Assembly: GCA_964437835.1 (NCBI GenBank)
Contig: CAYTJA010000466.1
Span: forward strand, 6,019 to 70,018
Direction: 5' to 3'
Length of the DNA stretch: 64,000 bases
Origin: an uncultured Spirochaetales bacterium
Lineage (GTDB): Bacteria > Myxococcota_A > UBA9160 > SMWR01
The notes under the pieces were generated by a model. That model was not told the DNA's origin. It searched no databases and was given only the letters and a program-made list of their open reading frames with translations. Shown here piece after piece: positions 22,842 to 42,423 of the stretch (position 1 is the first letter of the stretch; the number at the start of each line of letters is the position of its first letter). The translations under genes and the position numbers were made by a program.

Positions 22842-22925
22842 CATTATCGGTCTCGCGACACCACCGCCTCTCCACCCCCGCGAACTGATAGAGTGGCGTT
22901 CGGGGGGAGTAAAGGTGGCGCCGAT

Positions 22926-23570
22926 ATGCAGACTCGAGTCGTGGCGCTATTCGCTGCTCTCATGCTCGCCCCGCTCCAGAGCTCGGCCGGTTCCGGTGGA
23001 GTCGTCACCTTCGGAGGTAGCTCAACACCGGAAGGCTGCACAGGCGGCAACTGCCATCCGGAAGGCAGCCCGGGCTTGACGACTCAGCTCAGCGGTCCCG
23101 GCTCCGTATCGATCGGCACCTTGAATCAATACACGATGAGCGTGGCAGGGGTGACAGCGCTTCAGTTCTGCGGAATCAATATCGCAGCGGACAGCGGCAG
23201 CCTGATGGCGGCCCCACCTTGGACCCAGAAGTACATCTTCTCCGACCAGTTGACGCACACGCAACCGACTCAACCCTGCAGCTTCACATTCGGCTGGGTG
23301 GCACCTGGAACGCCCGACACCTATTACCTCCGCGCGACGGCCGTGGCGGGGAATTCGAATGGCAACCGACGCGACGACACCGCAGTTCCGCTCAACGCAT
23401 TTCCCATCACCGTGCTGCCGGAGCCGAGCCCAAACATGCTGCTGGCAATCGCGGTCGCCACGCTGACCCTTGCCTCGGGCGGTCGTGCCCCCGAGCAGCG
23501 TCCGCTCAGAAGGACACGTCGGCGCCGATGGTCCACAGCACATCGGGGCGCAAGCCATTCTGGCGATTGA
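22926..23570 (+). CDS. secreted protein with CX4CH motif and PEP-CTERM-like C-terminal anchor
   Basis: Track ORF 22893..23570 trimmed to ATG 22926 (signal peptide MQTRVVALFAALMLAPLQSSAG). CTGGNCH motif. C-terminal LPEPSPNMLLAIAVATLTLA followed by an Arg cluster. Lies in a lower-G+C patch. The last 65 nt overlap the convergent OMP gene. Confidence 0.5.
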   Translation: MQTRVVALFAALMLAPLQSSAGSGGVVTFGGSSTPEGCTGGNCHPEGSPGLTTQLSGPGSVSIGTLNQYTMSVAGVTALQFCGINIAADSGSLMAAPPWTQKYIFSDQLTHTQPTQPCSFTFGWVAPGTPDTYYLRATAVAGNSNGNRRDDTAVPLNAFPITVLPEPSPNMLLAIAVATLTLASGGRAPEQRPLRRTRRRRWSTAHRGASHSGD

Positions 23571-24858: not shown

Positions 24859-24907
24859 TTCCCCGAACCGCGGCTCCGATGAGGCCTGGCTTCGGCATTC
24901 GAGCGAT

Positions 24908-27301
24908 CTAGCCGCCCTTCATGGTCGCGATCCGCCAGACGCCGTCCTTGCGGGAGATTTCCGCGCGCATCTGGCGCGTCTCTCCATTGATCGTCTGGCG
25001 GAAGGTCGCGATCACGATCCCGTCCTGATGCTTCGCGTCGATCAGCTGGGTCTGGACGGCGGAGGCCGGATGCTCCGCGAAGTACGCCCCCATGCTGTCC
25101 CGCTGGATCTCGCTGAGGACCCGAACTCCCTGCATTTCCGCGAGGCTGCCCCTCTGATAGGCGTTCCGGTAGCGCTCCAGGACTTCCTCGGCGACGCGTC
25201 CTGCGTCGAGCTCGTCTTCCACGGAGACGCTGACGATCCGGCTGGTGGACTCGCTGCGGGCGTCGACGGCCTGGAACTCCAGGGTGTGAGGGCCGGAAGC
25301 GGCGGGCGCATAGCGGAACTCGAAATCGGGAGAGGAGGAGGTCGCAACCTCCTGCTGGTCGACGACGACCCGCAGCGATACCGGGCCCTGGGTGTTTCTC
25401 GCCAGCGCCCGGAAGCTCTGCGTGCTTCCCAGCTTCATTTTCTGTGTCGACGAGGCAGGCGTGAGCTCGAGCTCGAGCGCCTTCGCGACCAGGACAGCCG
25501 GTACCGGCGCGGAGACCGGCAGCACCGATGCACTCGTCACCACGGCCCCGGCAGGGGGCCGTGCAGACACGTCCGGGAGGCGCACCGATGTCGTCCCCAT
25601 CTCCAGGGCCGCGATGAAATACTCGCGCGCGCGGCGGAGCTGGGTTTCGGCCTGCTCGAAGGATTCCTCCTCTTGCAGGGTGCGAGACTCGGCGAGGGCG
25701 AGGCTCCCGGCTTCGACCTCCGCTCGGACCCGCGGATCTCTGGACACGAGCGAGCGACTCGAGCGCTCCGCGCTCTCTGCACTCAGCCATTGGGAGCTGA
25801 GGCGCGCGATCCACGCGGCGCGGACCTGCTCGAGCTGCTCCCGAGCCTGGCTGCCCGATGCTTCGATGCGATCGAGCCTGGCGACATCCGTCGCCGCCGC
25901 GGCGCACGCTGCATCGCCCGCAGCAGCCGCTCCGCTCGCCGGCGGCTGCAGCGTCTCTGCGACCGAGCGCTTCAGCTCCGCGAGACGTTCGGGGTAGAGC
26001 GCGCCCACGCCAGCGTGCTCCAGCTTGCGCAGTCCCGTATCCAGCCGTCCACGCGCGTCTTCGACGATCGGGTGCACCGAGCGCCTGGCCTCCTGGCACA
26101 CTTCAGCCAGGCCCTTTCGAATGCCAGCGAGCGCGGAGCCGAGCTCCGCGACCTGCCCTTCGGCGACCTGGGAGCGAGACGCTTCGAGTTCCGACTGGAG
26201 GTCGATCAGGCGCTGGCTCAGCTTTTCCACCAGCGTGGGGTCGGGGAGTAGCGGGGCGAGTCGCTGCACTTCGCCCACGACTCCGGAGGCCTGCTCCCAG
26301 TGGGCCCCTGCGGCGACCAGGCGTTGCTGATTCACGCGAGTCTGGTTCCAACGCCATGCCGTGGTCCCGCCGAAGGCAAGACTCAGAAACAGCCCGCCGG
26401 CGAGCAGGCTGAGATGGATCCGACGCCACAGGCTCCGGGCGGCGATCTCGGGAACGTGGCCCGAGCTCGATGGAAACGCTCGAGCCAGCGCCTCCTGCAT
26501 CTCCTTCGCGTCCTGATAGCGGTCACCCGGCTTCATGCGGGTGGCTTTCGCGATCAGCTTGCTGATTCGCGGGTCGAAGCCGTCTGGAAAGCTGAACTCG
26601 ACTTCGGCACCGGCTCTGTCCAGCCCGCCGAGATAGAACAGCACGGCGTGGTCCTTCTTGAGATCGATGCCTTCGACGGTCGCGTAGGCAGAATGTTCCG
26701 CCAGCGACCAGTAGAGCGAGAGTCCCATCGAGAAGACATCTGCCGACGCGAGCGCGCGTCTGCCACTCGCTTGCTCGGGCGAGATGTACAGAGCGGTTCC
26801 CATCACTTGGGTGCGGTCGTTGCTCGTGAGCTCGTCGCGCGATATGCCGAGATCGCTGACCAGCACCCGTCCGTCGTCACACAGCAGGATGTTCGCCGGC
26901 TTGATGTCGCGGTGGACGAGGTGCTTCCGATGCAGCTCGGCCAGGCCTTCGAGGGCCTCGCGGTAGATCCGAACCGCATCCTCGAGGGACAGCTGGCCTT
27001 CCGCATGGAGGTTCGAGCCCCGCACGAGCTCCATGGCATACCAATACAAGCCGGCCGCTTCGTCCTTCCCGCGGTCGTAGATCTGGACCAGGTTCTGATG
27101 CTTGAATTGCGATAGGCGCTTGGATTCAGCTTCGAATTCTCTCCACAGCTCCCCTGAGGCGAACTGAGGCTTCAGCACTTTTACAGCGCAGGGGCGATCC
27201 CATTTTTCGTCCCAGGCCTCGTAGACCCAAGCCATCCCGCCCTCTCCGAGGAGATCCTTGACCGGGAAGTTGGGAATCTTGGGAAACGAACCCGAATCCA
27301 T
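24908..27301 (-). CDS. receptor-type Ser/Thr protein kinase (Hanks-type) with TM and large extracytoplasmic region
   Basis: 797-aa ORF. GEGGMAWVY...AVKVLK, HRDIKPANILL, DLGISR, GTALYISPEQ motifs. TM helix LSLLAGGLFLSLAFGG. Long C-terminal region ending in an NTF2-like module. Confidence 0.9.
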   Translation of the reverse strand: MDSGSFPKIPNFPVKDLLGEGGMAWVYEAWDEKWDRPCAVKVLKPQFASGELWREFEAESKRLSQFKHQNLVQIYDRGKDEAAGLYWYAMELVRGSNLHAEGQLSLEDAVRIYREALEGLAELHRKHLVHRDIKPANILLCDDGRVLVSDLGISRDELTSNDRTQVMGTALYISPEQASGRRALASADVFSMGLSLYWSLAEHSAYATVEGIDLKKDHAVLFYLGGLDRAGAEVEFSFPDGFDPRISKLIAKATRMKPGDRYQDAKEMQEALARAFPSSSGHVPEIAARSLWRRIHLSLLAGGLFLSLAFGGTTAWRWNQTRVNQQRLVAAGAHWEQASGVVGEVQRLAPLLPDPTLVEKLSQRLIDLQSELEASRSQVAEGQVAELGSALAGIRKGLAEVCQEARRSVHPIVEDARGRLDTGLRKLEHAGVGALYPERLAELKRSVAETLQPPASGAAAAGDAACAAAATDVARLDRIEASGSQAREQLEQVRAAWIARLSSQWLSAESAERSSRSLVSRDPRVRAEVEAGSLALAESRTLQEEESFEQAETQLRRAREYFIAALEMGTTSVRLPDVSARPPAGAVVTSASVLPVSAPVPAVLVAKALELELTPASSTQKMKLGSTQSFRALARNTQGPVSLRVVVDQQEVATSSSPDFEFRYAPAASGPHTLEFQAVDARSESTSRIVSVSVEDELDAGRVAEEVLERYRNAYQRGSLAEMQGVRVLSEIQRDSMGAYFAEHPASAVQTQLIDAKHQDGIVIATFRQTINGETRQMRAEISRKDGVWRIATMKGG

Positions 27302-27574
27302 CGAAGTACCCGGAAGCGCCTGCTGCAGCGCCCTGCGCCACCGCCATCAGCGGCGACGCTAGCCAGGAATAGGGGCCTCCTCGCCACGATCAAAGTAACC
27401 CACGGCGAGGCCCGGCGGCGAGAAGAGTTCGAGGAACCCACCTCGATGCGTCCGCCGACATTCCGCTTCCATTCGCAGCGAGCGGGTGTCTAGAATCGCC
27501 GCGGCTGCGGGGACCGGTTAGGAGCATCGACCATCGGCCAGCGCGAAGCATCGCCCGGCGAAGCAAGGACTCGA

Positions 27575-29635
27575 TTGCGCCTCAGCACCACGGGGATCTA
27601 CTGCGTCGCCGCCGCATCGGCGCTGTTGCTGGCGAGCTGCAAAGGGAAAAGCAGCCCGCGCGGGGGCCCGGACTCCCTCTGCGATGGCGCGTGCCTGCAA
27701 CAGGCGCTTACGCAGAACGATGTCGAGCACGTGGTCGCGCAGGCCAGCATCGAGGCGCAGGCCCAGGGCCTGCCGGTCACGATCGCGGTAGTCGACCGCG
27801 TCGGAAATGTGCTCGCGGTGTTCCGCATGACGGGCGCGTCGACCACCGTGGAGATCTCGGCCGGCCGTTCGAGCGCAAACGGTTCGGGGCTCGCCGGCTT
27901 CGAAATCGAGACGACGCTGGCCGCGATCAGCAAGGCCGGCACTGCGGCCTATCTCTCCTCGCAGGGCAACGCCTTTTCCACCCGGACCGCGAGCCAGATC
28001 GTGCAGGAGAACTTCAACCCGGGGGAGCGCGTGCGCGCGGGTGGCCCACTCTTCGGCGTGCAGTTCTCGCAGCTTCCCTGCGGAGATTTCGTGCGGCGTT
28101 TCGAGAGGAATGGCCTGACCGAGGACGTCTCGCTCGGACCCAAGCGCATGCCGCTCGGCTTCTCGGCCGATCCGGGCGGACTTCCGCTCTACAAGAGCGG
28201 CGTGCCCGTCGGCGGCGTCGGGATCGAGCTCGGCACGAACGCGAGCGCGCCGGCCGAGCAGAGCTACCGAACCGATCCCGACGTGCTCGACCAGGACGTC
28301 CAGCGCGAGGAACGCATCGCGACTGCCGCGGCTGTGAGCTTTGCGGCGCCCGCGAACCGGCGCGCGAACGCGATCTCCGTCGACGGCCGCTTCCTGCGCT
28401 TTGCGGACGATGAGCGCGTCTCGACGCAGCCGATCCCACTCGCGACGCCCGTGACTCTCCCGCCCTCGCTCGGGGTACTCGTGGATGTCGACGGCTTCTT
28501 CGCCGGGGGCGGCGTCCTCGCGGGCACGGAATTGCTGACCCCGGCCTCCGGCATCGTCGCGAGCAGTGTGGACGGGATCGCGGCCGAGCTCGTGGTCAAA
28601 ACGGACGGCACGAATCGCTACCCCGCGATCGACTCGCTCGTGCCCACGCCGGCGGCGGGCGGCATGAGCACCGCCGAAGTCACCGCCGTGCTGCGCGAGG
28701 CATTGCGCGTCGCCGGCCGCTCGCGCGCGCAGATCCGCCGGCCCGCGGGCTCGTCGGTGCGCGTGAACATCTCCATCGTCGACACCGAAGGAACGGTGCT
28801 CGGCTTCGCGCGCACGCCCGACGCGCCGATCTTCGGCGCGGACGTCTCGCTGCAGAAAGCGCGCACGGCGGCGTTCCTGTCGCGGCTCGTGCCTACCTCC
28901 GCAGCCGACGATCTGATCGCGGCGCTCCCGCCACTGCCGGAAGTCACCGCGAAATTCGACACGCGCCCGGTTTCCGAATACCTGATCGCGGCCCAGACTT
29001 TCCTCGCGAAGCCCGATGTCCTCGACGACGGCACCGCGATCAGCGACCGCACGCTCGGCAACCTCGCGCGGCCTTTCTTCCCGGACGGCGTGAACGGCAA
29101 CCCGCCCGGCCCCTTTTCGCGCGTCTTCGAGCGCTGGAGCCCCTTCTCGACCGGGCTGCAGCTCGACGCCGGCCTGCAGGGCATCGCGGTTGCGCTGTGC
29201 CGGAGCTCGCGCGAGCTCCGCAGCCTCCTGTCGATGACCGCCGTCGGCATGTCTCTGATCCCCCCGATCGACCCCGACTTTCCGAACACCTGTCCGGCCG
29301 AGCCGATCGCCTGCACCGATGCGCTCGGCCTCGACCCCGCGCTGCGCGAGCTCGCGAACGGCCTGCAGATCTTTCCCGGCAGCGTGCCGATCTACCGCGG
29401 CTCGCAGCTCGTCGGCGCGATCGGGGTCTCGGGGGACGGCGTCGATCAGGACGACATGGTCGCGTTCCTCGGCCTGCACAACGCGGGCCAGCTGCTCGGC
29501 ACCGGGATCGGAAACGCCCCGATTGCGCAGCGCGCCGACCAGATCCAGGTCGGCGGCGTCAACCTGCGTTATGTGAGCTGTCCGCCGAGCCCCTTCCTCG
29601 ACAGCTCGGAGCAGAGCCCGTGCAAGGGACTGTGA
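27575..29635 (+). CDS. lipoprotein with two GlcG/HbpS-like (DUF336) putative haem-binding domains
   Basis: 686-aa ORF (TTG start). Lipobox LLLASC. Domain 1: VTIAVVDRVGNVLAVFRM...AISKAGTAAYLSS...GGLPLYKSGVPVGGVGI. Domain 2: VNISIVDTEGTVLGFARTPDAPIFGADVSLQKARTAAF...IYRGSQLVGAIGVSGDGVDQDDMVA. Confidence 0.7.
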   Translation: MRLSTTGIYCVAAASALLLASCKGKSSPRGGPDSLCDGACLQQALTQNDVEHVVAQASIEAQAQGLPVTIAVVDRVGNVLAVFRMTGASTTVEISAGRSSANGSGLAGFEIETTLAAISKAGTAAYLSSQGNAFSTRTASQIVQENFNPGERVRAGGPLFGVQFSQLPCGDFVRRFERNGLTEDVSLGPKRMPLGFSADPGGLPLYKSGVPVGGVGIELGTNASAPAEQSYRTDPDVLDQDVQREERIATAAAVSFAAPANRRANAISVDGRFLRFADDERVSTQPIPLATPVTLPPSLGVLVDVDGFFAGGGVLAGTELLTPASGIVASSVDGIAAELVVKTDGTNRYPAIDSLVPTPAAGGMSTAEVTAVLREALRVAGRSRAQIRRPAGSSVRVNISIVDTEGTVLGFARTPDAPIFGADVSLQKARTAAFLSRLVPTSAADDLIAALPPLPEVTAKFDTRPVSEYLIAAQTFLAKPDVLDDGTAISDRTLGNLARPFFPDGVNGNPPGPFSRVFERWSPFSTGLQLDAGLQGIAVALCRSSRELRSLLSMTAVGMSLIPPIDPDFPNTCPAEPIACTDALGLDPALRELANGLQIFPGSVPIYRGSQLVGAIGVSGDGVDQDDMVAFLGLHNAGQLLGTGIGNAPIAQRADQIQVGGVNLRYVSCPPSPFLDSSEQSPCKGL

Positions 29636-31824
29636 GCGGCCGCAGGCGCGCGCGCGTTTTCGCGCGGGTCGTGTGTGCTGCGCTGCCGCTGCTCGCGCCC
29701 GCGGCGCACGCCGCCGACGCTGCGCTGCTCGCGCTGCGTGTCGGCGAGCACCCGGGCTACACGCGCGTCGTGCTCGAGCTCGACGTCGCGGCGCCGCTGA
29801 GCCTCGAGGAGCAGACCCGCATCGGTGACGCCAGCGAGCTGACGCTGCTGCTCAGCGCGGTCGCCGCCGCCGCGCAGCGAGTTCCCGGGAGCGGCCTCGT
29901 CGAGAGCATCCGCGTCGAGCCGCTCGCAGACGCGACGCGCGTGCGCATCCAACTGCGCGAGGCCGGAGTCGAATGGAAGCGCTCCGAGCTTTCGGGACCG
30001 CCGCGCTGGGTGCTCGACTTCTCGACCGGCAGCGGTCTCAGCGATGCGGAGCCCGGCGCCGGCCCCGCGCCGACTGTTGCAGAGCCCCCGCTGCTGGCTC
30101 GAGCGGAGGAAGTGGACGCGACGCCCGTGCCGCCGCGTTCCCGCCTGCGCCGGCCCGGCGACCGCGCGACGCCGCAGCCCGCGGTCGCAGGGCGCTCCAG
30201 CGATCCGGAGATCGCGGCCCGCAGCGCCGCGCGCGAGCGGCTGCCGCTGCCGGACTACGACTTCGTCGCGGTCCCCGACCGCTGGCGCATCGTCGAGAAC
30301 ATCGGCGTGAACGAAAGATTCTGGGATCCCTATCACCAGAACACCCTCAAGGGCGACCGCCCGATCCTCGGTACGCATGACTGGTTCGTGAACCTGGCCG
30401 CGATCTCCGACACCGTCGTCGAGCCGCGCCGGCTGCCGACGCCGGTCGGCCTGCAGGCGGAGCGCAAAGCCGGGCGCAACGGAATCTTCGGTGCCGGCGA
30501 GCAGCTGCTCGTAGTGCAGAACCTGATCCTGTCGGCGTCGCTGATCCAGGGCAACACCGTGTTCCGCCCGCCGGACTGGGAGTTCCGCTTCACGGGCGTC
30601 GGCAACGTCAACTACGCCGAGGTCGAGACGCTCGGCGTGTTGAAGGCCGACCCGGCCAAGGGCAGGAGCCGCACGGACGGGCACTTCGGCCTGCAGGAGG
30701 CCTTCGTCGACCGCCACCTGCGCAACAAGTCCGAGCGCTACGACTTCGACAGCCTGCGGCTCGGCGTGCAGCCCTTCATCTCCGACTTCCGCGGCTTCCT
30801 GTTCCAGGACAGCCAGCTCGGCGCGCGCGTCTTCGGCACCGCAGCGAACAACCGCATCCAGTACAACCTCGCCTACTTCCAGCGCCTCGAGAAGGACACG
30901 AACTCGGGGCTGAACCGATTCGACGCGCTGCGTGAGGACGGCGTGCTGTTCGCGAACGCCTACTACCAGGATTTCCCGGTGCTCGGCTTCACGAGCCAGG
31001 CGATCGTCGCCTACAACTGGAATCGCGAGGCCGACGACCGCCATTACAACGACAACGACTTCCTCGAGCGGCCCGCCCCGATCGGCGACGCGCGCGGCCA
31101 CGACTACGACGTCGTGTATCTCGGGCTGAACGGCGATGGCCACATCGACCGACTCAATCTCACCTTCGCCGGCTACTACGCGGCCGGGCACGACTCGCAC
31201 CAGCCGCTCGCGGCGCACAGCGCTGCGATCTCGGCCTGGTTCACCGCGCTGGAGGGCTCGCTCGACTTCGACTGGGTTCGGCTCAAGGCCTTCGGCCTGT
31301 TCGCGAGCGGCGATGCGGACCCGGAAGACGACCTCGCGACCGGCTTCGACGCGATCTTCGAGAATCCGCAGTTCGCGGGCGCCGACACCAGCTTCTTCCA
31401 GCGGCAGGGCATCCCGCTGATCTTCGGCGGCGGCGTCGTGCTGGTGTCGCGCAACGCGCTGCTGCCTTCGCTGCGAACCTCGAAGGAGGAAGGCCAGTCG
31501 AACTTCGTGAATCCGGGGCTCGGGCTGCTGGGCGTCGGCGCAGACCTCGACATCCTGCCCGAGCTGCGCCTGGTGGCGAACGCGAGCTGGCTCACGTTCC
31601 ACGAGGTCGACTCGCTGCAGCTGCTGCGCAACCAGGCCGAGGTCGACCATGAAATCGGCTGGGACCTCTCGGCCGGCCTGATCTACCGCCCGCTCTTGAT
31701 CCAGAACGTCGCGTTCCGCGTGTCCGGAGCGGTGCTGCTGCCGGGCGCCGGGATGCGCGATCTCTTCGAGACGCACCCGTCGCCCTTCTACTCGGTGCTG
31801 CTGAATCTCACGCTCACGTACTGA
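29632..31824 (+). CDS. AMIN-domain protein fused to a large outer-membrane beta-barrel
   Basis: Track ORF 29197..31824 trimmed to GTG 29632 (GTGA overlap with the upstream stop). Signal peptide ...LLAPAAHA. AMIN-like ALRVGEHPGYTRVVLELD...RVRIQL...RWVLDF. About 550 aa of beta-strand-rich sequence ending ...LLNLTLTY. Confidence 0.7.
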   Translation: MSGRRRARVFARVVCAALPLLAPAAHAADAALLALRVGEHPGYTRVVLELDVAAPLSLEEQTRIGDASELTLLLSAVAAAAQRVPGSGLVESIRVEPLADATRVRIQLREAGVEWKRSELSGPPRWVLDFSTGSGLSDAEPGAGPAPTVAEPPLLARAEEVDATPVPPRSRLRRPGDRATPQPAVAGRSSDPEIAARSAARERLPLPDYDFVAVPDRWRIVENIGVNERFWDPYHQNTLKGDRPILGTHDWFVNLAAISDTVVEPRRLPTPVGLQAERKAGRNGIFGAGEQLLVVQNLILSASLIQGNTVFRPPDWEFRFTGVGNVNYAEVETLGVLKADPAKGRSRTDGHFGLQEAFVDRHLRNKSERYDFDSLRLGVQPFISDFRGFLFQDSQLGARVFGTAANNRIQYNLAYFQRLEKDTNSGLNRFDALREDGVLFANAYYQDFPVLGFTSQAIVAYNWNREADDRHYNDNDFLERPAPIGDARGHDYDVVYLGLNGDGHIDRLNLTFAGYYAAGHDSHQPLAAHSAAISAWFTALEGSLDFDWVRLKAFGLFASGDADPEDDLATGFDAIFENPQFAGADTSFFQRQGIPLIFGGGVVLVSRNALLPSLRTSKEEGQSNFVNPGLGLLGVGADLDILPELRLVANASWLTFHEVDSLQLLRNQAEVDHEIGWDLSAGLIYRPLLIQNVAFRVSGAVLLPGAGMRDLFETHPSPFYSVLLNLTLTY

Positions 31825-31837
31825 GGCCGATCCACAC

Positions 31838-34800
31838 ATGAAGCTCGCGTTTCCGCTCACGACCGCCCTCGCCGCCGCACTGCTCGCGGCGGTCGCGGCA
31901 GGCGCAGCCGAAGGAGAGGCGCCGCGCGAGATCGCCTATCCGAGCACCCCACCCGCGCCCGAGCACCAGGACAGCGCGCAAGCGGAGGCCAAGAGCGCGG
32001 GCTGCCGCAGCTGCCATACCCCGATGGACGAGGCGAGCATGCACGCGACGCCGGGCGTCGAGCTCGGCTGCAGCGACTGCCACGGCGGAAATGCCGAGAC
32101 CGCGCGCCCCGCGCAGAGTTTTCCGGGCGGCCGCGCCTACGAAGAGGCCAAGGCGCGCGCGCACGTGCAGCCGCGCTATCCGCACGCGTGGGGCCTCGAC
32201 GAGGAGGGGCGGCGTGTCGGCCCGCAGCCGGTGCGCGCCTACACGCTCTACAACCGCGAAGCACCGGAATTCATCCGCTTCGTGAACCCGGGCGACCTGC
32301 GCGTGGCCGAGGAAGCCTGCGGCGCGTGCCACGCGGAGATCGTGCAGGCGAACCGGCGCAGCCTGATGGCGACCGGCGCGATGCTCTGGGGAGGAGCCTC
32401 GTACAACAACGGGATTCTTCCCTTCAAGCGCTACGTGCTCGGCGAGGCCTACACGCGCGACGGTCAGCCGGCCGCGATCGAGAGCCGCTTCGAAATCAGC
32501 CCCGAGCTCGCGAAGCGCGGCGTGCTGCCGCGCTTCCTGCCGCTGCCCGCCTGGGAGACGATCCCTCCTATGGACAACTTCCGCGTCTTCGAGCGCGGCG
32601 GCAAGTTCAACGTTTCGCAGTTCCCGGAGATCGGTCTGCCCAAGTCGCAGGACGATCCCGGCAAGCCCGACATCCGCCAGAGCAACCGCGGCGAGGGCAC
32701 CGGCGCGCGCATCGCGGTGCCCGCGCTGAACATCCACAAGACGCGCCTCAACGATCCCTTGCTGTGGTTCCCCGGCACGAACGACAACCCCGGCGACTTC
32801 CGCGCCTCGGGCTGCAGCGGCTGCCACGTCGTCTACGCGAACGACCGCGAGCCGCTGCACTCGGGCCTCTACGCGGCCGCCGGGCACCAGGGCCAGTCCC
32901 AGAGCGCCGACCCGACGATCGCGGAGCGGCTGAACGCCAGCGGCCACAAGGAGTCCGGCCACCCGCTGAAGCACGCCTTCACGCGCGCAATTCCGACCGC
33001 GCAGTGCATGACCTGCCACATGCATCAGCCGAACATGTTCGTGAACTCCTACCTCGGCTACACGATGTGGGACTACGAGGCCGATGCGCCGCTGATGTGG
33101 CCGAAGCAGCAGGCCTACCCCTCCATCCCGGAGATGCACGAGCGCCTCGAGCGCAACCCCGAGGAGGCGAACATCCGTGGCCTCTGGGGAGACCCCGAAT
33201 TCCTCTCCCGCGTCTGGGACGACGTAAACCCGCAGGCGCGCGACACGCAGTTTGCCGACTATCACGGCCACGGCTGGAACTTCCGCGGCGTGTTCAAGCG
33301 CAACCGCAAGGGCGCGCTGCTCGACGCGAAGGGCGAGACGATCCCCGACGACCTGCCGCCCAAGCAGAAATGGCAGCGAGCGGTCCACCTGCGCGACATC
33401 CACGTCGAGTACGGGATGCAGTGCTCGGACTGCCACTTCGCACAGGACTCGCACGGCGACGGCTTCCTGAAAGGGGAGGTCGCGGCCGCGGTCGAGATCG
33501 GCTGCGCGGACTGCCACGGCACCAGCCGCGCGCGGCCGACGCTGCGCACATCGGGCCCCGCGGCACCGCCGGGCGGCAACGACCTCAGCTTCTTGCGCAA
33601 CGCGGATGGCGGCGCGCGCTTCGTCTGGCGCGGCGAGCGCTTGTACCAGCGCCTGGTCCTGCCGCCGCACACAGAGATCGAAGTCACGCAGGTGATCGAC
33701 ACCGTGACCAGGGGCCATCCGGCCTACAACGCCAAGGCCGCGCGCGCGAAGACCCTCGAGCGCGGGCCCGGCCAGCGCTGGGGCGAGGCGGCTTCGGGTT
33801 GCGAACGCGCGCACGACGACGAGAAGCTGGCCTGCTTCAGCTGCCACTCGTCGTGGGTCACGAGCTGCGGCGGCTGCCACCTGCCGATCCAGGCCAACTG
33901 GAAGACCGAGCGCCACCACTACGAGGGCGGCGAGACGCGCAACTTCGCGACCTACAACCCGCAGGTCGCGCGCGACGAGATGTTCCAGCTGGGCGTCCAC
34001 GGCGAGGCGAAAAACGGCATCATCGCGCCGGTGCGCTCGTCCTCGGCGCTGGTGCTCTCGTCGACCGACATCAACCGCAACCGCATCTACCAGCAGCAGC
34101 CGCCGGTCTCGGCCGGCGGTTTCAGCGCGCAGGCCTTTGCGCCGCACTTCCCGCACACGGTGCGCAAGACCGAGACCAAGACCTGCACGGACTGCCACGT
34201 CTCGCAGCGCAACGACAACAATGCGCTGATGGCGCAGCTGCTGCTGCTCGGCACGAACTTCGTGAACTTCACCGGCTACAACGCGTGGGTCGGAGGCGAG
34301 CGCCATCTCTCCGCGATCCAGGTCACCGAGTGGGACGAGCCGCAGGCCGTACTCGGGAGCTACCTGCACCGGTACGCCTATCCCGACTGGTTCGCGGAGC
34401 ACGAGGCGCGCGGCCGCGAACTCACGCGGCCGAGCCCGGGCGCACTCGACGCGGACCCCGGCTGGGTCGCCTCGCTGCGGCGCTTCTTCCAGGGGAGCTT
34501 CGGAGGCCACGCGATCTACGACGGAACCTACGGCCACGGCTCGGGCCCGGTCGGCTGCCTGCAGCTGCGCGGCGAGTACCTCTACGCGGCCGAGGGCCCG
34601 CGCGGCATGCAGGCCTACGACGTCGCGTCGGTCGCGAACAAGGGCTTCTCGGAGCGCGTGGTCACGGCGCCCTTCTCGCCGCTGGGCCAGAACCTGCGCG
34701 TGAAGTCACGCAACGCGACTTGCGTTGCGCTGCCGACGACCCAGCCGATCCGCCCCGAGCGCAACCGCCAGGTTCGCGAGGCGTTTCCCGAGAACCTCGA

Positions 34801-35731
34801 GCAGGCGATGCACCCGATCTACAGCTATGCCGCGGTGACCGACTCCGAAGAGGGCCTGATCCTCGTGAACGTCGAGACCCTCGGCGACTTCGAGCCGCGC
34901 AACAACTTCTTCGAGCGCGCACTGACCTGGAATCCCGGCGGCCTGCTGGATGGCGCGCGGCATGCGCACTTCGCGGGGCACCTGCTCTACGTCTCGGCCG
35001 ACACCGGCATCATCGTCGTCGACCTGAACGACCCGCTGCAGCCGAAGGCGCTCGCGCGGATCCCGCTGATCAAGCCGCGCGCGTCGATGCAGCAATTCCG
35101 CTACCTCTTCGCGGTCGACCTCGAGGGTTTCAAGGTCGTCGATGTGACGAACCCCGCCGCACCGCGCCTCCTGCCCGGCTCGAGCGTGCGCCTCGCCGAC
35201 GCGCGGCGCGTCTTCGTCTCGCGCACCTACGCCTACGTTGCCGCGGGCCGCGAGGGTCTCGTGATCATCGACGTCGAGCGCCCCGAAGAGCCGCGCATCG
35301 CGCAGCGCTTCGACGCGGGCGGCCAGCTCTCCGACGCGCGCGACGTGATCGTCTCGACGACCAACGCCTCGCTCTTCGCCTACGTCGCCGACGGCGTGAA
35401 CGGCCTCAAGGTGCTGCAGCTGACTTCGCCCGAGAGTCAGCCGCGCCTCTACGGCTTCAGCCCCGAGCCGAAACCCGAGCTGATCGCGTGGCGCAAGACT
35501 GCCTCCCCGGCGCTCTCGCTCTCGCGCCCCCTCGAACGCGACCGCGCGGTCGACGAGACCGGCCACCAGATCGCGGTCTTCGGCCGCGTCGGCTCGCGGC
35601 CCTTCGACCTCGAGGAGATGCAGCAGCTGTATCTCGGCGACGACGAGCGCGTCTGGACCGTCGAGGACGAGGAATCCATCCCGAGCGCTGCGCGGGCGAG
35701 CGGCGGACCCCGCGATCGCTGCCCGCCCTGA
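31838..35731 (+). CDS. secreted decahaem c-type cytochrome fused to a C-terminal LVIVD-repeat (beta-propeller-like) region
   Basis: 1297-aa ORF with a signal peptide. Ten CxxCH motifs: CRSCH, CSDCH, CGACH, CSGCH, CMTCH, CSDCH, CADCH, CFSCH, CGGCH, CTDCH. C-terminal repeats: GLILVNVETL, GIIVVDLNDPLQP, GFKVVDVTNPAAP, GLVIIDVERPEEP, GLKVLQLTSPESQP. Confidence 0.85.
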   Translation: MKLAFPLTTALAAALLAAVAAGAAEGEAPREIAYPSTPPAPEHQDSAQAEAKSAGCRSCHTPMDEASMHATPGVELGCSDCHGGNAETARPAQSFPGGRAYEEAKARAHVQPRYPHAWGLDEEGRRVGPQPVRAYTLYNREAPEFIRFVNPGDLRVAEEACGACHAEIVQANRRSLMATGAMLWGGASYNNGILPFKRYVLGEAYTRDGQPAAIESRFEISPELAKRGVLPRFLPLPAWETIPPMDNFRVFERGGKFNVSQFPEIGLPKSQDDPGKPDIRQSNRGEGTGARIAVPALNIHKTRLNDPLLWFPGTNDNPGDFRASGCSGCHVVYANDREPLHSGLYAAAGHQGQSQSADPTIAERLNASGHKESGHPLKHAFTRAIPTAQCMTCHMHQPNMFVNSYLGYTMWDYEADAPLMWPKQQAYPSIPEMHERLERNPEEANIRGLWGDPEFLSRVWDDVNPQARDTQFADYHGHGWNFRGVFKRNRKGALLDAKGETIPDDLPPKQKWQRAVHLRDIHVEYGMQCSDCHFAQDSHGDGFLKGEVAAAVEIGCADCHGTSRARPTLRTSGPAAPPGGNDLSFLRNADGGARFVWRGERLYQRLVLPPHTEIEVTQVIDTVTRGHPAYNAKAARAKTLERGPGQRWGEAASGCERAHDDEKLACFSCHSSWVTSCGGCHLPIQANWKTERHHYEGGETRNFATYNPQVARDEMFQLGVHGEAKNGIIAPVRSSSALVLSSTDINRNRIYQQQPPVSAGGFSAQAFAPHFPHTVRKTETKTCTDCHVSQRNDNNALMAQLLLLGTNFVNFTGYNAWVGGERHLSAIQVTEWDEPQAVLGSYLHRYAYPDWFAEHEARGRELTRPSPGALDADPGWVASLRRFFQGSFGGHAIYDGTYGHGSGPVGCLQLRGEYLYAAEGPRGMQAYDVASVANKGFSERVVTAPFSPLGQNLRVKSRNATCVALPTTQPIRPERNRQVREAFPENLEQAMHPIYSYAAVTDSEEGLILVNVETLGDFEPRNNFFERALTWNPGGLLDGARHAHFAGHLLYVSADTGIIVVDLNDPLQPKALARIPLIKPRASMQQFRYLFAVDLEGFKVVDVTNPAAPRLLPGSSVRLADARRVFVSRTYAYVAAGREGLVIIDVERPEEPRIAQRFDAGGQLSDARDVIVSTTNASLFAYVADGVNGLKVLQLTSPESQPRLYGFSPEPKPELIAWRKTASPALSLSRPLERDRAVDETGHQIAVFGRVGSRPFDLEEMQQLYLGDDERVWTVEDEESIPSAARASGGPRDRCPP

Positions 35732-35755
35732 TCGCGCGCCCGCGGGCGCGCGGGA

Positions 35756-37093
35756 TCACAGCAATTTGCGCAGCTTCTCGAACGCCGCCGAGGCGCGCGC
35801 GCGGTCGTAGTTTTCGGGATTGTCGAGCTGCTCTGCGAATTTCAGCGCCGCGTCGATCAGGGAGCCGGCCCGCTGCGCCGAAAGCGCGCCCTGCTGCCGC
35901 AGGTTGTCGGCCAGCGCCTGAACCGCGAGCGCGGCCTGCTCGGCCGCGGCGTAGTCGAGATATTCGCCCGAGGCGCCCTCGGCGAGCAGGCTGTCGAGCA
36001 CGCGCCGGATCGCGGCGGCGTCTGGCTTCCACGCGTCGAGGGTCGCGATCGCGGTCTGCAGGCGAGCCAGCATCCGCTGCGCGGCCTGTTGCGCCTCGGC
36101 CGGCCCTTTCGCGGTGGCCTGGTGCAGCGCGCGGAGCTCGCCGCGCAGCGCTTCGGCCTGCTCCGGCGCGGCTGCAACCAGCCCGTGCCGCAGCATCAGG
36201 AAGCTCGCGTCGGAGAGCCGCGGGACGCCGGGCCCGAGGCCGGTGCTCGCGCGCGCGCGCCAGCGGGCCTCGCTCATCGGGTGGTGACAGGCGTGGCAGT
36301 CGAATAGCACCAGCTCGGGCCAGACGCCGTCGTGCCCGCGCCCCGCGTCCAGGAACAGCTCGAGCAGCCGCCGGGCCGCGACCGCCTGCCCGATCGCCCA
36401 GAACTGCGCGCCCTCGGCCGCGCGCTTCCCGCGCGGCGGGTAGCGCTTCGCCGTCGTCTCGGAGTCGAAGTGCGCGGGCTGGGTCAGCGAGAAGACCTGC
36501 AGCTCGAAGCTGATGCGCGGATGGCCCGCGCCCATCAGGCGATGGCCGACGAGCTTGTCGCGCGTGCCGATGTGGCAGGAGCTGCAGAGCTCGGCACGCA
36601 GCAAGGGATCGTCGGTCGGGTACATCCCGTCGCGCAGATTGTCTGCGCGGGAGCGGCCCGAATCGTGCGGCTTCAGCCAGCCCTCGCTGCCGCCGTGACA
36701 GGCCTCGCAGCCGACGCCGCCCGCGAGATCGAACTTCGCGCCGCGGCGCTGCGCGGGCACATGATCCGCATGGCAGTCGAGGCAGAGCGCCGACTCGTGC
36801 GCCGCCCCGATCCCGAGGCTCGCGGCGATCTGCTTGGATTTCTGGTCGAAGAGGTGCTGATAGGCCTTCGCGTGCTGATCTTCCTGCTTCCAGAGCGTGT
36901 ACTCGCTCTGCCAGACCGCTCCCTTGCCGGGCCCGAGCTTGCCGTGACAGGGCGCACCCGCGCAGGACGCGACGCCTTCGTGGCGCTGCCCGTCGGCCTG
37001 CGGAAGCACCGGCTGCGCCGCGACCGCAGCCGCGCAGAGCGCGCCGCACGCGGCCCTGCCACAGAGCGCCCCGAGCTCGCGAATCCCGATCAC
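35756..37093 (-). CDS. multihaem c-type cytochrome (cytochrome c554-like family)
   Basis: 445-aa ORF with a signal peptide. CAGAPCH (CX4CH) plus CLDCH, CEACH, CSSCH, CHACH. Helical C-terminal half. Confidence 0.8.
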   Translation of the reverse strand: MIGIRELGALCGRAACGALCAAAVAAQPVLPQADGQRHEGVASCAGAPCHGKLGPGKGAVWQSEYTLWKQEDQHAKAYQHLFDQKSKQIAASLGIGAAHESALCLDCHADHVPAQRRGAKFDLAGGVGCEACHGGSEGWLKPHDSGRSRADNLRDGMYPTDDPLLRAELCSSCHIGTRDKLVGHRLMGAGHPRISFELQVFSLTQPAHFDSETTAKRYPPRGKRAAEGAQFWAIGQAVAARRLLELFLDAGRGHDGVWPELVLFDCHACHHPMSEARWRARASTGLGPGVPRLSDASFLMLRHGLVAAAPEQAEALRGELRALHQATAKGPAEAQQAAQRMLARLQTAIATLDAWKPDAAAIRRVLDSLLAEGASGEYLDYAAAEQAALAVQALADNLRQQGALSAQRAGSLIDAALKFAEQLDNPENYDRARASAAFEKLRKLL

Positions 37094-37240: not shown

Positions 37241-38761
37241 ATGCAGACTCCGGAGGCCCTCCTCGCCAAGCTGCTCGAGCGCGCCGACACGCTGCCCTCG
37301 GTGCCCGCGGTCGCGGCCGAGGTGATGCGCGTCTCGCAGCGCGAGGACTGCAGCATAGACGCGCTGGTGCGCGTGATCTCACTCGACCCCGTGCTCTCGG
37401 GCCGACTGCTCAAGCTCGCGAATTCCTCGGCGGCGGGAAACCGCACGCCGGTCACCCAGCTCTCGCGAGCCGCGATGCTGCTCGGCATGCGCTCGGTCAA
37501 GCTGATGGCGCTCAGCTGCTCGATCGTGTCCGCATTCCCGCAGGACGGTCGCGGCGCCGTCGACCTGCGCGCGCTCTGGCGGCGCAGCGTCGTCCGAGCG
37601 GTTGCCGCGCGCGCGTTTGCGCTGCACCGGAAATCGCCGCTCGCGGACGAGGCCTTTCTGTGCGGCCTGCTCTCGCAGCTGGGCCGCCTCGTGCTCTCGC
37701 AGACCCTTCCGAAGCGCTACGCCGAGGTCGTCCAGCGCGCCGCCGGCGCGTGGCCGAGCGCCGACGACGAGCGCGCTGTCTTCGGCTTCGATGGCGCGGC
37801 GGTAGGTGCGGCGCTGCTGCGTCACTGGTCGCTGCCGGAGCTGCTCTGCGATGCGATCCAGTGCGCTAGCCAGTTCCCGGCCACGCCTGCGAAAGCAGAG
37901 CCGCAGGTCATCGAGCTCGCGCAGCTGGTGCAGCTCGCCGCACACTGTGAAGAGCTCGTCTGCGGACGCGACGCGGCCGCGGCGATGGAAGCTCTCCAGG
38001 AGTTCGCGGAGAGCGAGCACGGGATCGACGCACAGACGCTCGAGAGCCTGCTGCTCGACCTCGAGAGTGGAATCGCGGAGACCGCCGACGCGCTCGAGCT
38101 GCGCGTGCAGAGCGTCCGCATGCAGGAGGTCCTGGAAGCGGCGCAGCAGCAGATCGCTCGCGAGAGCCTGCACCTGGCCTCTGAGCTCGCAGGGCTGCAT
38201 CAGTACAGCGAGACGCTCGAGCGCAAGACCCACGAGCTCGGGGAGCGCGCCACCACCGACGCGCTCACCGGCATCCCGAACCGGGCCTGCTTCGACGCAT
38301 TCCTGCAGCGCTGCATGGACGAAGCCGCACTTGCGAGCCGGCCGCTGCCCTTCGGCATCCTGATGCTCGACGTCGACCACTTCAAGCGCGTCAACGACAG
38401 CTACGGCCATCCCATCGGCGACGAAGTCTTGAAGCTCGTCGCACAGACGCTGCGCAAGGCGATCCGCGGCAGCGAGATCAGCGCGCGTTACGGCGGAGAG
38501 GAATTCGCCGTCGCGTTGCAGTGCAGTCGCCCGGGTCTGGAGATTGCCGCTGAGCGCCTGCGCGGCGCAATCGAGAACGCGAAGCTGCAGGCCGAGGCAG
38601 CGACGATCTCGGTCACCGTGAGTATCGGCGGAGCCTGTGTCGAAGACTTGCGCAGCGCCGACGCGGCACTGCTGATGCAGCGCGCCGACCGCTGCCTCTA
38701 CGCGGCCAAGCACTCCGGGCGCAACCGCGCGGTGGTCCAGCTCGCTTCGGCGGACGAGTAG
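37241..38761 (+). CDS. HDOD domain - GGDEF diguanylate cyclase
   Basis: 506-aa ORF. HDOD-like LPSVPAVAAEVMRVSQRED...LVRVISLDPVLSGRLLKLANS. GGDEF domain with DALTGIPNR, DVDHFKRVNDSYGHPIGD, RYGGEEFAV. Confidence 0.85.
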   Translation: MQTPEALLAKLLERADTLPSVPAVAAEVMRVSQREDCSIDALVRVISLDPVLSGRLLKLANSSAAGNRTPVTQLSRAAMLLGMRSVKLMALSCSIVSAFPQDGRGAVDLRALWRRSVVRAVAARAFALHRKSPLADEAFLCGLLSQLGRLVLSQTLPKRYAEVVQRAAGAWPSADDERAVFGFDGAAVGAALLRHWSLPELLCDAIQCASQFPATPAKAEPQVIELAQLVQLAAHCEELVCGRDAAAAMEALQEFAESEHGIDAQTLESLLLDLESGIAETADALELRVQSVRMQEVLEAAQQQIARESLHLASELAGLHQYSETLERKTHELGERATTDALTGIPNRACFDAFLQRCMDEAALASRPLPFGILMLDVDHFKRVNDSYGHPIGDEVLKLVAQTLRKAIRGSEISARYGGEEFAVALQCSRPGLEIAAERLRGAIENAKLQAEAATISVTVSIGGACVEDLRSADAALLMQRADRCLYAAKHSGRNRAVVQLASADE

Positions 38762-40243: not shown

Positions 40244-40251
40244 GGCAAGCG

Positions 40252-42423
40252 ATGCAGACGCACAAGACCTACTGCCGCTTCTGCCATGCGCTCTGCGGCA
40301 TCGAAGTCGACGTCGAGAACGGGCGCGCCGTGGCGCTGCGCGGAGATCGCGACCACCCGATCTCCCGCGGCTTCACCTGCGAGAAGGGGCGGCAGTTGCT
40401 CGAGCAGCACGACCACCCCGAGCGCATCCGCAGCTCGCTGCGGCGGAGAGCCGACGGGAGCTTCGAGACCATCGCGAGCGAGCGCGCGCTGGACGAGATC
40501 GCCGAGAAACTGTCGCGAATCCTGCGCGAGCACGGGCCGCGCGCGATTGCGCTCTACAACGGCACCAAATCGTGGACCAACGTCGGCTACGGGATCTCGC
40601 GCAGCTGGCTCGACGGCATCGGATCGCCCTCGCTCTACACGACCGTCACGATCGACCAGCCCGCGAAGTCGATGGCACGTGCGCTGCACGGCGGCTGGAT
40701 GGCGGGCCACCAGGACATCGCGACGTCGGACGTCGCGCTCTTCATCGGCGGCAATCCGCTGCAATCCTTCAGCAGCGAGCACCTGAAGCTCCCCTGCGCG
40801 AATACCTGGGATTATCTTCGCGACTATCTCCGGCGCGGGCTACAGCTGATCGTGATCGATCCGCGCCGCACGGAGCTCGCGCAGCTCGCGGCGGTGCACC
40901 TGGCGGTGCGGCCCGGGGAGGATCCGACGCTGCTCGCCGGGATGATGCGCGTGATCCTCTCCGAAGCGCGCTTCGATCGGGACTTCGTGGCCGCCTACGC
41001 GAGTGGACTCGATGCGCTGCGCGAGGCGGTCGAGCCCTACACGCTCGCTTACGTCGAGCGGCGCAGCGGCGTTCCGCAGGCCGAGGTCGTCCGGGCCGCA
41101 CGGCTCTATGCGCGCGGGCCGCGCGGCTCGGCGGTCGCGGGCACCGGCGCGAACATGGCGCCGCATCCGCTCGCGACCGAGCTGCTGGTCTGCGCGCTCA
41201 ACACGAGCTGTGGCCGTCACGCGCGAGCCGGAGATCCGCTCGGCCACGCCGGCGTGCTCACGCGCTCGGTTCCGCGGCGCGCGCAGCCGCTTCCGCCGCG
41301 GCCCTTCTGGGGCAAGATCCCCGGTCCGCGCGTGCGCGGGCTTCGCTCGTTCTTCTACGAGCAGCCGACGGCCGCGCTCGCCGACGAGATCCTGACGCCC
41401 GGTGAGGGCCAGATCCGCGCATTCATCTGCAATGGCGGCAACCCCGCGGTAGCGTTTCCCGACCAGCAGAAGGTCGTGCGCGCGCTCGAAGCCCTCGACT
41501 TGCTCGTCGTGCTCGACGTGCAGATGACTCCGACCGCCGAGCTCGCGGATTTCGTAATCGGCTGCAAGCTCTCGCTCGAGAAGCCCGACTACACGCGCCA
41601 CCTCGAGTGGTATTTCCGCGAGCCCTTTGCGCAATTCACGCCGGCGCTGGTCCAGGCCGAAAGCGACGTGCTCGATGAATGGGAGTTCTTCTACGGGCTT
41701 GCGCAGCGCATGGGCGTGCCGCTCTCGCTCGGGCGCGGAGTCTTCGAAGGGCCAGGCGGCGGCCGCCCCGTCGACCTCGCGAACAAGCCCACGACCGAGG
41801 CGCTGATGGAGCTCGAATGCGCGGACGCCTGCGTGTCGCTTGCGGAGCTTCGCAAGCATCCTGGCGGCGCGATCTTCGAATCGGCTCGACGCGATGCGCT
41901 TCCCGCCGATCCCGCGAATACCGCGCGCCTCGAACTGGCGCCCGCGCAGCTCGTGGAGGAATTGCGCGCGATCCGCACAGAGCCGATCGTCCCCGGAGCC
42001 GGCTACCGCGAAGGCGCGCACTTCAGCCACCGCCTGATCAGCCGCCGCATGCGGCAGGTCTTCAATTCGACCGGCGTCCACCTCGACGCCTTGCGCACGC
42101 GCGGCCCCGGAAATCCGGCCTTCATGAACCTCGGCGATATGCGCGATGCGGGCCTCGCAACGGGCGATCTCGTCGAGATCGAATCCGATCACGGCCGCAT
42201 CTGCGCGCTCGCGCGCGAGGACGAGACTCTTCCGCACGGCGTGATCGCGATGGCGCATTCCTGGGGCACGCTGCCGGGCCGCGACGACCTCGCCGGCGAT
42301 CCCGCGCAGGGCGCCTGCACCAACCGTCTGATCGCCTGCGACCGCGACTTCGAGCCCTACTCCGGGCACTGCCGCCAGAGCGCGATCCCGGTGAACATCC
42401 GCCGCGCGGCACGCCGCAACTGA
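40252..42423 (+). CDS. molybdopterin-dependent oxidoreductase (DMSO-reductase superfamily)
   Basis: Track ORF 38929..42423 trimmed to ATG 40252. N-terminal FeS motif CRFCHALCG...C. GGNPxxS-type block (FIGGNPLQSF). C-terminal barrel domain (GDLVEIESDHGRI...). Confidence 0.85.
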   Translation: MQTHKTYCRFCHALCGIEVDVENGRAVALRGDRDHPISRGFTCEKGRQLLEQHDHPERIRSSLRRRADGSFETIASERALDEIAEKLSRILREHGPRAIALYNGTKSWTNVGYGISRSWLDGIGSPSLYTTVTIDQPAKSMARALHGGWMAGHQDIATSDVALFIGGNPLQSFSSEHLKLPCANTWDYLRDYLRRGLQLIVIDPRRTELAQLAAVHLAVRPGEDPTLLAGMMRVILSEARFDRDFVAAYASGLDALREAVEPYTLAYVERRSGVPQAEVVRAARLYARGPRGSAVAGTGANMAPHPLATELLVCALNTSCGRHARAGDPLGHAGVLTRSVPRRAQPLPPRPFWGKIPGPRVRGLRSFFYEQPTAALADEILTPGEGQIRAFICNGGNPAVAFPDQQKVVRALEALDLLVVLDVQMTPTAELADFVIGCKLSLEKPDYTRHLEWYFREPFAQFTPALVQAESDVLDEWEFFYGLAQRMGVPLSLGRGVFEGPGGGRPVDLANKPTTEALMELECADACVSLAELRKHPGGAIFESARRDALPADPANTARLELAPAQLVEELRAIRTEPIVPGAGYREGAHFSHRLISRRMRQVFNSTGVHLDALRTRGPGNPAFMNLGDMRDAGLATGDLVEIESDHGRICALAREDETLPHGVIAMAHSWGTLPGRDDLAGDPAQGACTNRLIACDRDFEPYSGHCRQSAIPVNIRRAARRN

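Follow-up and report, generated by a model that had tools for sequence, protein, structure and literature searches.

Why should a decahaem cytochrome end in a module of LVIVD-type repeats, and what might the module do for it? This question is raised by an open reading frame (ORF) at positions 31838-35731 (+) of a 64,000-nucleotide (nt) stretch of DNA from an uncultured Spirochaetales bacterium (contig CAYTJA010000466.1), hereafter called the window. Its product of 1297 amino acids (aa) hosts the repeat module at its C-terminal end. An earlier note, made from the sequence letters, had described the module as LVIVD-type and propeller-like, and had suggested that it serves as a head for contacting a substrate or mineral or for docking a partner. 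Based on our analysis, the module belongs to the LVIVD family and has the predicted fold of a beta-propeller, and sequence comparison indicates that haem domain and propeller are one fixed, ancient unit. We propose that the propeller may be a rigid docking and positioning platform in an electron pathway across the cell envelope, a role in which we see about as much to believe as to doubt.

ORF 31838-35731 is the frame of a real gene and not a spurious long overlapping ORF, because its GC content at third codon positions (GC3) is 0.926, in a sequence of about 70% GC; the product also has a 100% match (P0001) and full-length homologues. Two other ORFs, 31814-34537 (-) and 32188-36513 (+), overlap the gene in other frames with products of 907 and 1441 aa; these are Arg/Ala-rich products of the 70% GC and not genes. 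The gene product is predicted to be a secreted cytochrome of the c type that has ten haem sites. Its hydrophobic N-terminus is a putative signal peptide (about aa 1-24, MKLAFPLTTALAAALLAAVAAGAA; nt 31838-31909, +) without a lipobox cysteine, and a lipobox-like motif occurs in only 8 of 105 homologues. The evidence on location consists of this signal peptide together with an invariant cysteine pair, C907/C962, which is compatible with an oxidising compartment. As the earlier note had it, the protein is decahaem: CXXCH occurs exactly ten times (at aa 56, 78, 161, 326, 390, 529, 556, 666, 677, and 783), and all ten copies are invariant in an alignment of 40 sequences. The region that they span (aa 56-787; nt 32003-34198, +) has weak similarity only, to Cytochrome_C7 and ExtM. 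Sequence and profile searches with the whole protein gave no significant match to a PDB chain, the best being an ACIII-type pentahaem subunit (E value 0.16), and neither kind of search found a significant relative of the haem domain among solved structures.

The five repeat strings quoted in the earlier note are present exactly, at aa 1006, 1057, 1097, 1140, and 1189 (nt 34853, 35006, 35126, 35255, and 35402), and a sixth copy, GMQAYDV, lies at aa 923. The motif G[LIVFM].[LIVA][LIVY][DNQ][LV] has 6 matches in the C-terminal 443 aa, spaced 40-83 aa apart, and none elsewhere in the protein; shuffled sequences contained a mean of 0.014 matches, and 0 of 20,000 shuffles reached 6. The Pfam hidden Markov model of LVIVD (PF08309; gathering score 20.2 bits) scored 46.2 bits on the whole protein (E 2.8e-12) and 54.4 bits, in 3 stretches, on nt 34400-35728 (E 7.5e-15), which bears out the LVIVD identity that had been proposed. 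When the model was applied blade by blade, blade 5 (aa 1122-1164, GLVIIDV; nt 35201-35329, +), the most canonical LVIVD repeat, scored 29.3 bits (E 5.3e-07), blade 6 (aa 1165-1221, GLKVLQL; nt 35330-35500, +) 16.4 bits, and blade 4 (aa 1080-1121, GFKVVDV; nt 35075-35200, +) 14.5 bits, and blades 1-3 went unrecognised. We also cut blade profiles from the 40-sequence alignment and compared them by hhalign. Blades 3-6 are interrelated at 94-96% probability: blade 3 (aa 1037-1079, GIIVVDL; nt 34946-35074, +) reaches 96% with blades 4 and 5, blade 4 has values of 95-96%, and blade 6 matches blade 5 at 94%. Blade 1 (aa 889-934, GMQAYDV; nt 34502-34639, +) matches blade 5 at 77% and blade 2 (aa 989-1036, GLILVNV; nt 34802-34945, +) at 85%. 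Therefore, the module contains six copies of one repeat, of which the first two have diverged.

The predicted structure of the module agrees with a propeller-like fold, as the earlier note had anticipated. AlphaFold2, run on aa 790-1297 with 93 aligned sequences, returned a nearly all-beta model with a mean predicted local distance difference test score (pLDDT) of 83.9 and a predicted template modelling score (pTM) of 0.87. The strand list of this model reads as six four-stranded blades, with an additional hairpin at aa 815-828 and a strand at aa 1225-1228; blade 1, which Pfam alone misses, has its four strands in the model, blade 2 is seen as well, and blade 3 has pLDDT values above 90. The hairpin (model strands E26-31/E34-39) is followed by helices, and together they fill nt 34250-34501 (+) between the last haem and blade 1, with a weak profile similarity to blade 3 (33%). 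We infer that the hairpin and the C-terminal strand may form a composite seventh, closing blade, the blade count of 7 and the closure being taken from the secondary-structure string of the model. The module is indeed C-terminal, as had been noted, but its true start lies earlier than the position of 34400 given for it, at about nt 34250; position 34400 falls in a linker. Foldseek comparison of the C-terminal model with the PDB gave 961 matches at E<=1e-3. Almost all of the 50 matches listed are propellers of 6-8 blades, among them WD40 proteins, AztD, BamB, the propeller of cytochrome cd1 nitrite reductase, and the designed Tako8, with 8-15% identity, target-normalised template modelling scores (TM-scores) mostly of 0.3-0.6, and a probability of 1.00 to propellers of 7-8 blades. 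These matches are generic; they therefore support a propeller fold without singling out a solved structure as a specific relative. Taken together, the last ~490 residues are predicted to fold as a beta-propeller of six LVIVD-type repeats, and score above threshold, periodicity, and predicted fold all place this modelled propeller in the LVIVD family.

Two parts of the module are its own. A helical insert (aa ~960-995) precedes blade 2 and is family-specific, as is the tail (nt 35501-35731, +), which comprises the closing strand, a conserved stretch, and a variable end. The conserved stretch (aa 1234-1256; nt 35537-35605) contains 12 invariant residues (RDR..DE.G.Q.A..GR.G..P, from R1234 to P1255) but is modelled with low confidence, pLDDT being below 50 for model residues 446-464. 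Haem-free LVIVD proteins lack the tail, their matches being confined to blades 3-6. We consider aa 1234-1256 a candidate partner-binding motif. In the blades, invariant His and Cys residues in the 40-sequence alignment are limited to H992 and the C907/C962 pair, and they form no invariant cluster.

How general is this architecture? A whole-protein search covered 5.8 billion clustered proteins, and our conclusions are drawn from the best 120 of at least 8000 candidate matches. These are full-length, at 60-84% identity; PF08309 is present in all except one, and every named one among them is called "hypothetical"; exactly ten CXXCH motifs are present in each of the 116 matches longer than 1200 aa. 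We also searched exhaustively with the last 498 aa, which retrieved 25,192 proteins at E<=0.001. Among the listed matches of at least 700 aa, 18 proteins have 5-28 haem motifs and carry the whole module at the C-terminus, and haem-bearing relatives with 36-56% identity align across aa ~50-1278 of the target. One of the proteins, P0147 from a Logan assembly (1648 aa), has 28 CXXCH motifs, in which an 18-haem N-terminal extension precedes a complete decahaem-propeller unit; it is 41% identical to the target over aa 51-1278. We considered stand-alone propeller genes, that is, a split form of the fusion, and rejected them: the short matches begin mid-domain, have no signal peptides, and look like truncated gene calls. 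The earlier note had suggested a search for other cytochrome-LVIVD fusions, and they proved to be numerous: relatives are encoded in at least 591 stretches of species-representative genomes. The carriers belong to Alpha-, Beta-, and Gammaproteobacteria, Myxococcota, and Acidobacteriota, and the protein keeps 55-66% sequence identity across phyla. Cultured carriers include Limnobacter alexandrii, Sphingobium subterraneum, Sphingoaurantiacus capsulatus, Sphingomonas solaris, Zavarzinia, Fontimonas, and Hyphococcus, and aerobic heterotrophs (Sphingomonas, Caulobacter, Brevundimonas, and Limnobacter) are among the carriers.

Most of the remaining long matches are of another kind. Of the 86 listed matches of at least 700 aa, 67 are haem-free proteins of 1100-6900 aa that match blades 3-6 only, in 7-24 stretches each; these are the classical LVIVD surface giants. 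The likeness is real at the level of the repeat, since target blades 4-6 match the Pfam model singly and blades 3-6 align to the repeats of the giants, and a propeller of four-stranded blades is what is predicted for the LVIVD family. The differences lie in the architecture. The target would have a single closed propeller of fixed size with two diverged blades and its own insert and tail, and this propeller is fused to ten c-type haems, whereas the giants have no haem motifs. Membership of the choice-of-anchor B family (TIGR04312) was also tried and rejected (17.8 bits against a cut-off of 100).

The gene context was taken from a tblastn comparison between the window and 81 loci; many of the core genes missing among these loci are missing because the contigs end there. 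Directly upstream of the target, in all 81 loci, lies a gene for a ~730-aa probable outer-membrane protein (29632-31824, +), with a signal peptide, a weak AMIN-like N-terminus, and the C-terminal sequence LNLTLTY. A profile of this protein matched no Pfam or PDB family and gave only weak matches to Alginate_exp, a Desulfovibrio porin, and SlipAM; from its sequence features it is probably an outer-membrane beta-barrel. Its gene is joined to the preceding stop codon by a GTGA overlap, and 13 nt separate its own stop from the ATG of the target. The preceding gene (27575-29635, +) encodes a lipoprotein of 686 aa (LLLASC) in which three HbpS-like/GlcG (PF03928) domains stand in tandem; the gene is found in 71 of the 81 loci and, where present, is always directly upstream of the outer-membrane gene. 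On the other side of the target, a c554-like cytochrome (35756-37093, -) with a signal peptide and 4 CXXCH motifs (Pfam Cytochrome_C554, E 2.6e-09) is encoded in 47 of the 81 loci. In the window this gene is convergent with the target, 24 nt from the target stop, and no terminator-like hairpin lies between them, whereas many of the other loci have it right after the target and in the same direction. A CAGAPCH sequence (C-X4-CH) near the N-terminus of this cytochrome might be a fifth haem site.

Three further genes complete the cluster of seven. An inner-membrane decahaem cytochrome (21003-22841, +; 61/81 loci) has a cytoplasmic FHA domain, one transmembrane (TM) helix (aa 138-156), and ten CXXCH motifs. 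A cytoplasmic protein (16837-19947, +; 60/81 loci) combines an FHA domain with a pyridine-nucleotide-disulphide oxidoreductase domain, three cNMP-binding domains, and two [4Fe-4S] domains. Between these two FHA genes lies one for a multi-TM protein of ~341 aa (19974-20999, +), which has no Pfam family and has a homologue in 59 of the 81 loci. In an alignment of 60 sequences, its His154/His168, His178, and His319/His333 are 98-100% conserved, and the members of each of the two pairs lie at i/i+14 in TM helices. Such i/i+14 His pairs in TM helices are a signature of bis-haem b proteins, for example cytochrome b and the ferric-reductase domain. This bis-haem-b-type signature suggests that the protein may transfer electrons across the inner membrane.

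Beyond this core, no flanking gene recurs in more than 12 of the 81 loci. The families that do recur are Ccm cytochrome maturation (8-12 loci), CHASE2 adenylate/guanylate cyclase (11), metallophosphoesterase (11), and PP2C (6), seen at loci L054, L035, L073, and others, and Ser/Thr kinase homologues are present in three loci. A nucleotide cyclase, PP2C, and a Ser/Thr kinase near the cluster are the expected signalling partners of cNMP-binding and phosphothreonine-binding FHA domains. Relative to locus L001, inserted DNA (window 22893-27500) separates the FHA-decahaem gene from the HbpS-like gene in the window. An outer-membrane-like ORF (23506-24858, -) with a weak Phenol_MetA_deg match and a Ser/Thr protein kinase (24908-27301, -) lie on this insertion. 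Farther downstream in the window, judged from the translations, are a 506-aa ORF with a GGEEF diguanylate-cyclase motif (37241-38761, +) and an ORF at about 40250-42423 (+) whose CxxCxxxC...C start is typical of molybdopterin oxidoreductases.

From these observations, we propose that the seven genes encode an electron pathway through the envelope and that the target is its outer module, in a scheme that assumes an outward direction of the electrons. The cytoplasmic NAD(P)H/FAD/[4Fe-4S] protein would give electrons to the bis-haem-b membrane protein, which would pass them to the FHA-anchored inner-membrane decahaem and on to the periplasmic c554-like cytochrome. From there they would reach the target decahaem, held at its dedicated outer-membrane barrel together with the HbpS-like lipoprotein. 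This pathway reading draws on the domain content of the neighbours, the invariant i/i+14 His pairs, and the recurrent Ccm, cyclase, PP2C, and kinase flanks; in keeping with the cNMP-binding and FHA domains, the pathway may be regulated by a signalling input. The propeller, for its part, may anchor the haem chain at the barrel or the lipoprotein, possibly via the invariant tail (aa 1234-1256), and once docked could present the terminal haems to the outside. A 1200-aa model of haem domain plus propeller has a pTM of 0.79, which suggests a fixed haem-propeller arrangement and not a tethered head. The adjacency of the outer-membrane gene in every locus and of the HbpS-like gene in most, together with the overlapping or closely spaced gene junctions, argues for docking; an invariant tail of low pLDDT fits a segment that becomes ordered on a partner, and the blades contain no invariant His/Cys cluster of the kind that would bind a metal. 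Such a role has a parallel in NHL propellers, which were proposed to stabilise outer-membrane cytochrome complexes (PMC5815863; bioRxiv 10.1101/2022.05.06.490989). Of the functions suggested in the earlier note for the head, partner docking thus fits the invariant outer-membrane adjacency and the model, and mineral contact is less likely, because the number of repeats is fixed, the identity across phyla is high, and many carriers are aerobic heterotrophs.

Several points weigh against the docking proposal. The outer location of the protein is an assumption, and its signal peptide is plain and lacks a lipoprotein anchor of the MtrC/OmcA type; the evidence behind the barrel nature of the upstream protein is weak; and the contact between propeller and partner, like the blade count and closure read from a strand string, is our deduction. 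Most of the carriers are aerobes, which are not known to need extracellular respiration. The conservation across phyla, finally, would equally suit a catalytic domain. The propeller could then be a catalytic or substrate-binding domain, with the ten haems wiring a reaction site in its channel or at the haem-propeller interface and the upstream protein serving as a substrate channel, an explanation that we find doubtful but weigh seriously. Identity of this degree from Proteobacteria to Acidobacteriota is unusually strong for a surface repeat, many polar residues are invariant, the insert and tail are peculiar to the family, and the pTM of the 1200-aa model suggests a fixed interface at which such a site might lie. 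There are precedents in cytochrome cd1 nitrite reductase, whose propeller is among our structural matches, in quinohaemoprotein dehydrogenases such as quinohaemoprotein alcohol dehydrogenase, and in the alpha subunit of hydrazine synthase (PMC12758564), all of which have a c-haem domain fused to a propeller. However, these enzymes hold a d1 haem, PQQ (pyrroloquinoline quinone), or haem alphaI site and one or two c-haems, whereas the target has ten haems, a different repeat family, and no recognisable cofactor ligands, and its structural similarity to them is generic, no match being enzyme-specific. Membership of the cd1 nitrite reductases in particular was rejected: the fold similarity is generic (target-normalised TM-score ~0.34, 9-11% identity), no Pfam or NCBIfam NirS match was obtained, and cofactor genes do not recur in the flanks. 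The blades offer no poly-His or Cys metal site, and most of the invariant residues sit on the structural signature of the repeat itself. In addition, ~24 c-haems over three proteins plus a membrane b-type protein exceed what a periplasmic enzyme would need.

Another explanation, which we think unlikely, takes the propeller to be a surface-exposed adhesive head that touches minerals, polymers, or cells for electron exchange with the haem chain. It draws on the true homology of the blades to the repeats of the haem-free surface giants, on the Pfam description of LVIVD as a surface-protein repeat, and on the attachment role given to an LVIVD protein in a Tenderiales study, but it takes the surface exposure of the propeller as an assumption. 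A fixed repeat number and high conservation are not how adhesive heads usually evolve, and the target differs from adhesins in both respects. The modelled propeller also appears locked to the haem domain and not tethered, and the many carriers that are aerobic heterotrophs fit poorly with such a role. It is hardly credible that the repeats arose by chance or through faulty annotation of a high-GC sequence, for example by reading the wrong frame or by merging two separate genes. At 70% GC long spurious ORFs do overlap the gene on both strands; nevertheless, the GC3 of its frame, the Pfam score, and the failure of every shuffle to reach the observed motif count exclude such an origin, as do hundreds of full-length homologues of the same architecture in independent assemblies, complete genomes included.

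The proposed docking platform can be set beside known envelope systems. Similar in design are the NHL-propeller clusters of Desulfovibrio ferrophilus (DFE_0448-0451/0461-0465) and Ca. Tenderia (UetH/UetI), in which multihaem cytochromes, a barrel, and a propeller are co-encoded and the propeller is proposed, as here, to mediate protein-protein contacts. Their propeller is, however, a separate protein of the NHL type, whereas that of the target is of the LVIVD type and covalently fused to the cytochrome, and the inner half of the target cluster (FHA-decahaem, b-type protein, flavin/iron-sulphur protein) differs as well. With MtrCAB and other porin-cytochrome conduits, the target shares a decahaem cytochrome encoded beside an outer-membrane protein, which in its own case is a probable one, a proposed electron transfer through the envelope, and further periplasmic multihaem partners, as the c554-like and FHA-TM-decahaem genes show in their respective loci. 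In contrast to MtrCAB, the target lacks a lipoprotein anchor and uses ~800 aa for its ten haems, with a propeller in addition; its upstream barrel candidate has no similarity to MtrB/PioB; and its cluster contains no quinol dehydrogenase and has the cytoplasmic NAD(P)-flavin/iron-sulphur protein and the b-type membrane protein instead. Membership of MtrC/OmcA was rejected, since ten CXXCH motifs are shared but PF22113 scores 12.3 bits against a cut-off of 30 and the signal peptide is not that of a lipoprotein; the Foldseek list for the 1200-aa model is dominated by propellers, with no MtrC/OmcA structures among its top hits.

A Geobacter family and a Ferrigenium trio touch parts of the system. 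Segments of the target haem domain align with Geobacter ExtM, a cytochrome of the selenite/tellurite operon (NCBIfam NF040943; 71.7 bits, E 3.9e-20), but these matches are partial and far below the cut-off of 800, and the ExtM model, with 599 positions, is too short for a propeller; membership was rejected. A trio of unassigned function in Ferrigenium straubiae, consisting of a [4Fe-4S] protein, a 5-TM protein, and an FHA-nonahaem cytochrome, matches the [4Fe-4S], multi-TM, and FHA-multihaem trio of our cluster; its description states that FHA-multihaem fusions were previously unreported and mentions no adjacent outer-membrane protein or propeller cytochrome (bioRxiv 10.64898/2026.01.22.701106).

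A bolder interpretation of the whole cluster, to which we give little weight, is that it would carry electrons over both membranes independently of quinones, with cyclic nucleotides and phosphothreonine as its gates. Bacteria would thus have their own version of the NADPH-oxidase/ferric-reductase design, in which electrons would run from NAD(P)H to flavin and iron-sulphur centers and through two b-haems across the membrane; some 24 c-haems would extend this route to the surface. The LVIVD propeller would then be the terminal reaction or docking site, where, for example, extracellular O2 might be reduced to superoxide, or Fe(III)/Mn oxides might be reduced. In this interpretation, the pathway would be widespread in aerobic Proteobacteria and Myxococcota.

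We found no published description of a cytochrome-LVIVD fusion or of the seven-gene cluster in a literature coverage that is thin for subscription journals. The components, a multihaem cytochrome, an outer-membrane protein, and a beta-propeller, are familiar; their arrangement is undescribed and widespread. In it, an LVIVD propeller and a decahaem cytochrome form a permanent fusion, and at the start of the conserved cluster around them stands a cytoplasmic NAD(P)/flavin/iron-sulphur protein in place of a quinol dehydrogenase. Limnobacter alexandrii LZ-4, Sphingobium subterraneum DSM 102255, Zavarzinia sp. CC-PAN008, and Sphingoaurantiacus capsulatus KCTC 42644 are cultured carriers that could serve as experimental hosts. 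If the cluster is a true electron conduit, extracellular electron transfer would be extended to common aerobic heterotrophs, and the LVIVD repeat would gain a concrete structural role that is testable by truncation.

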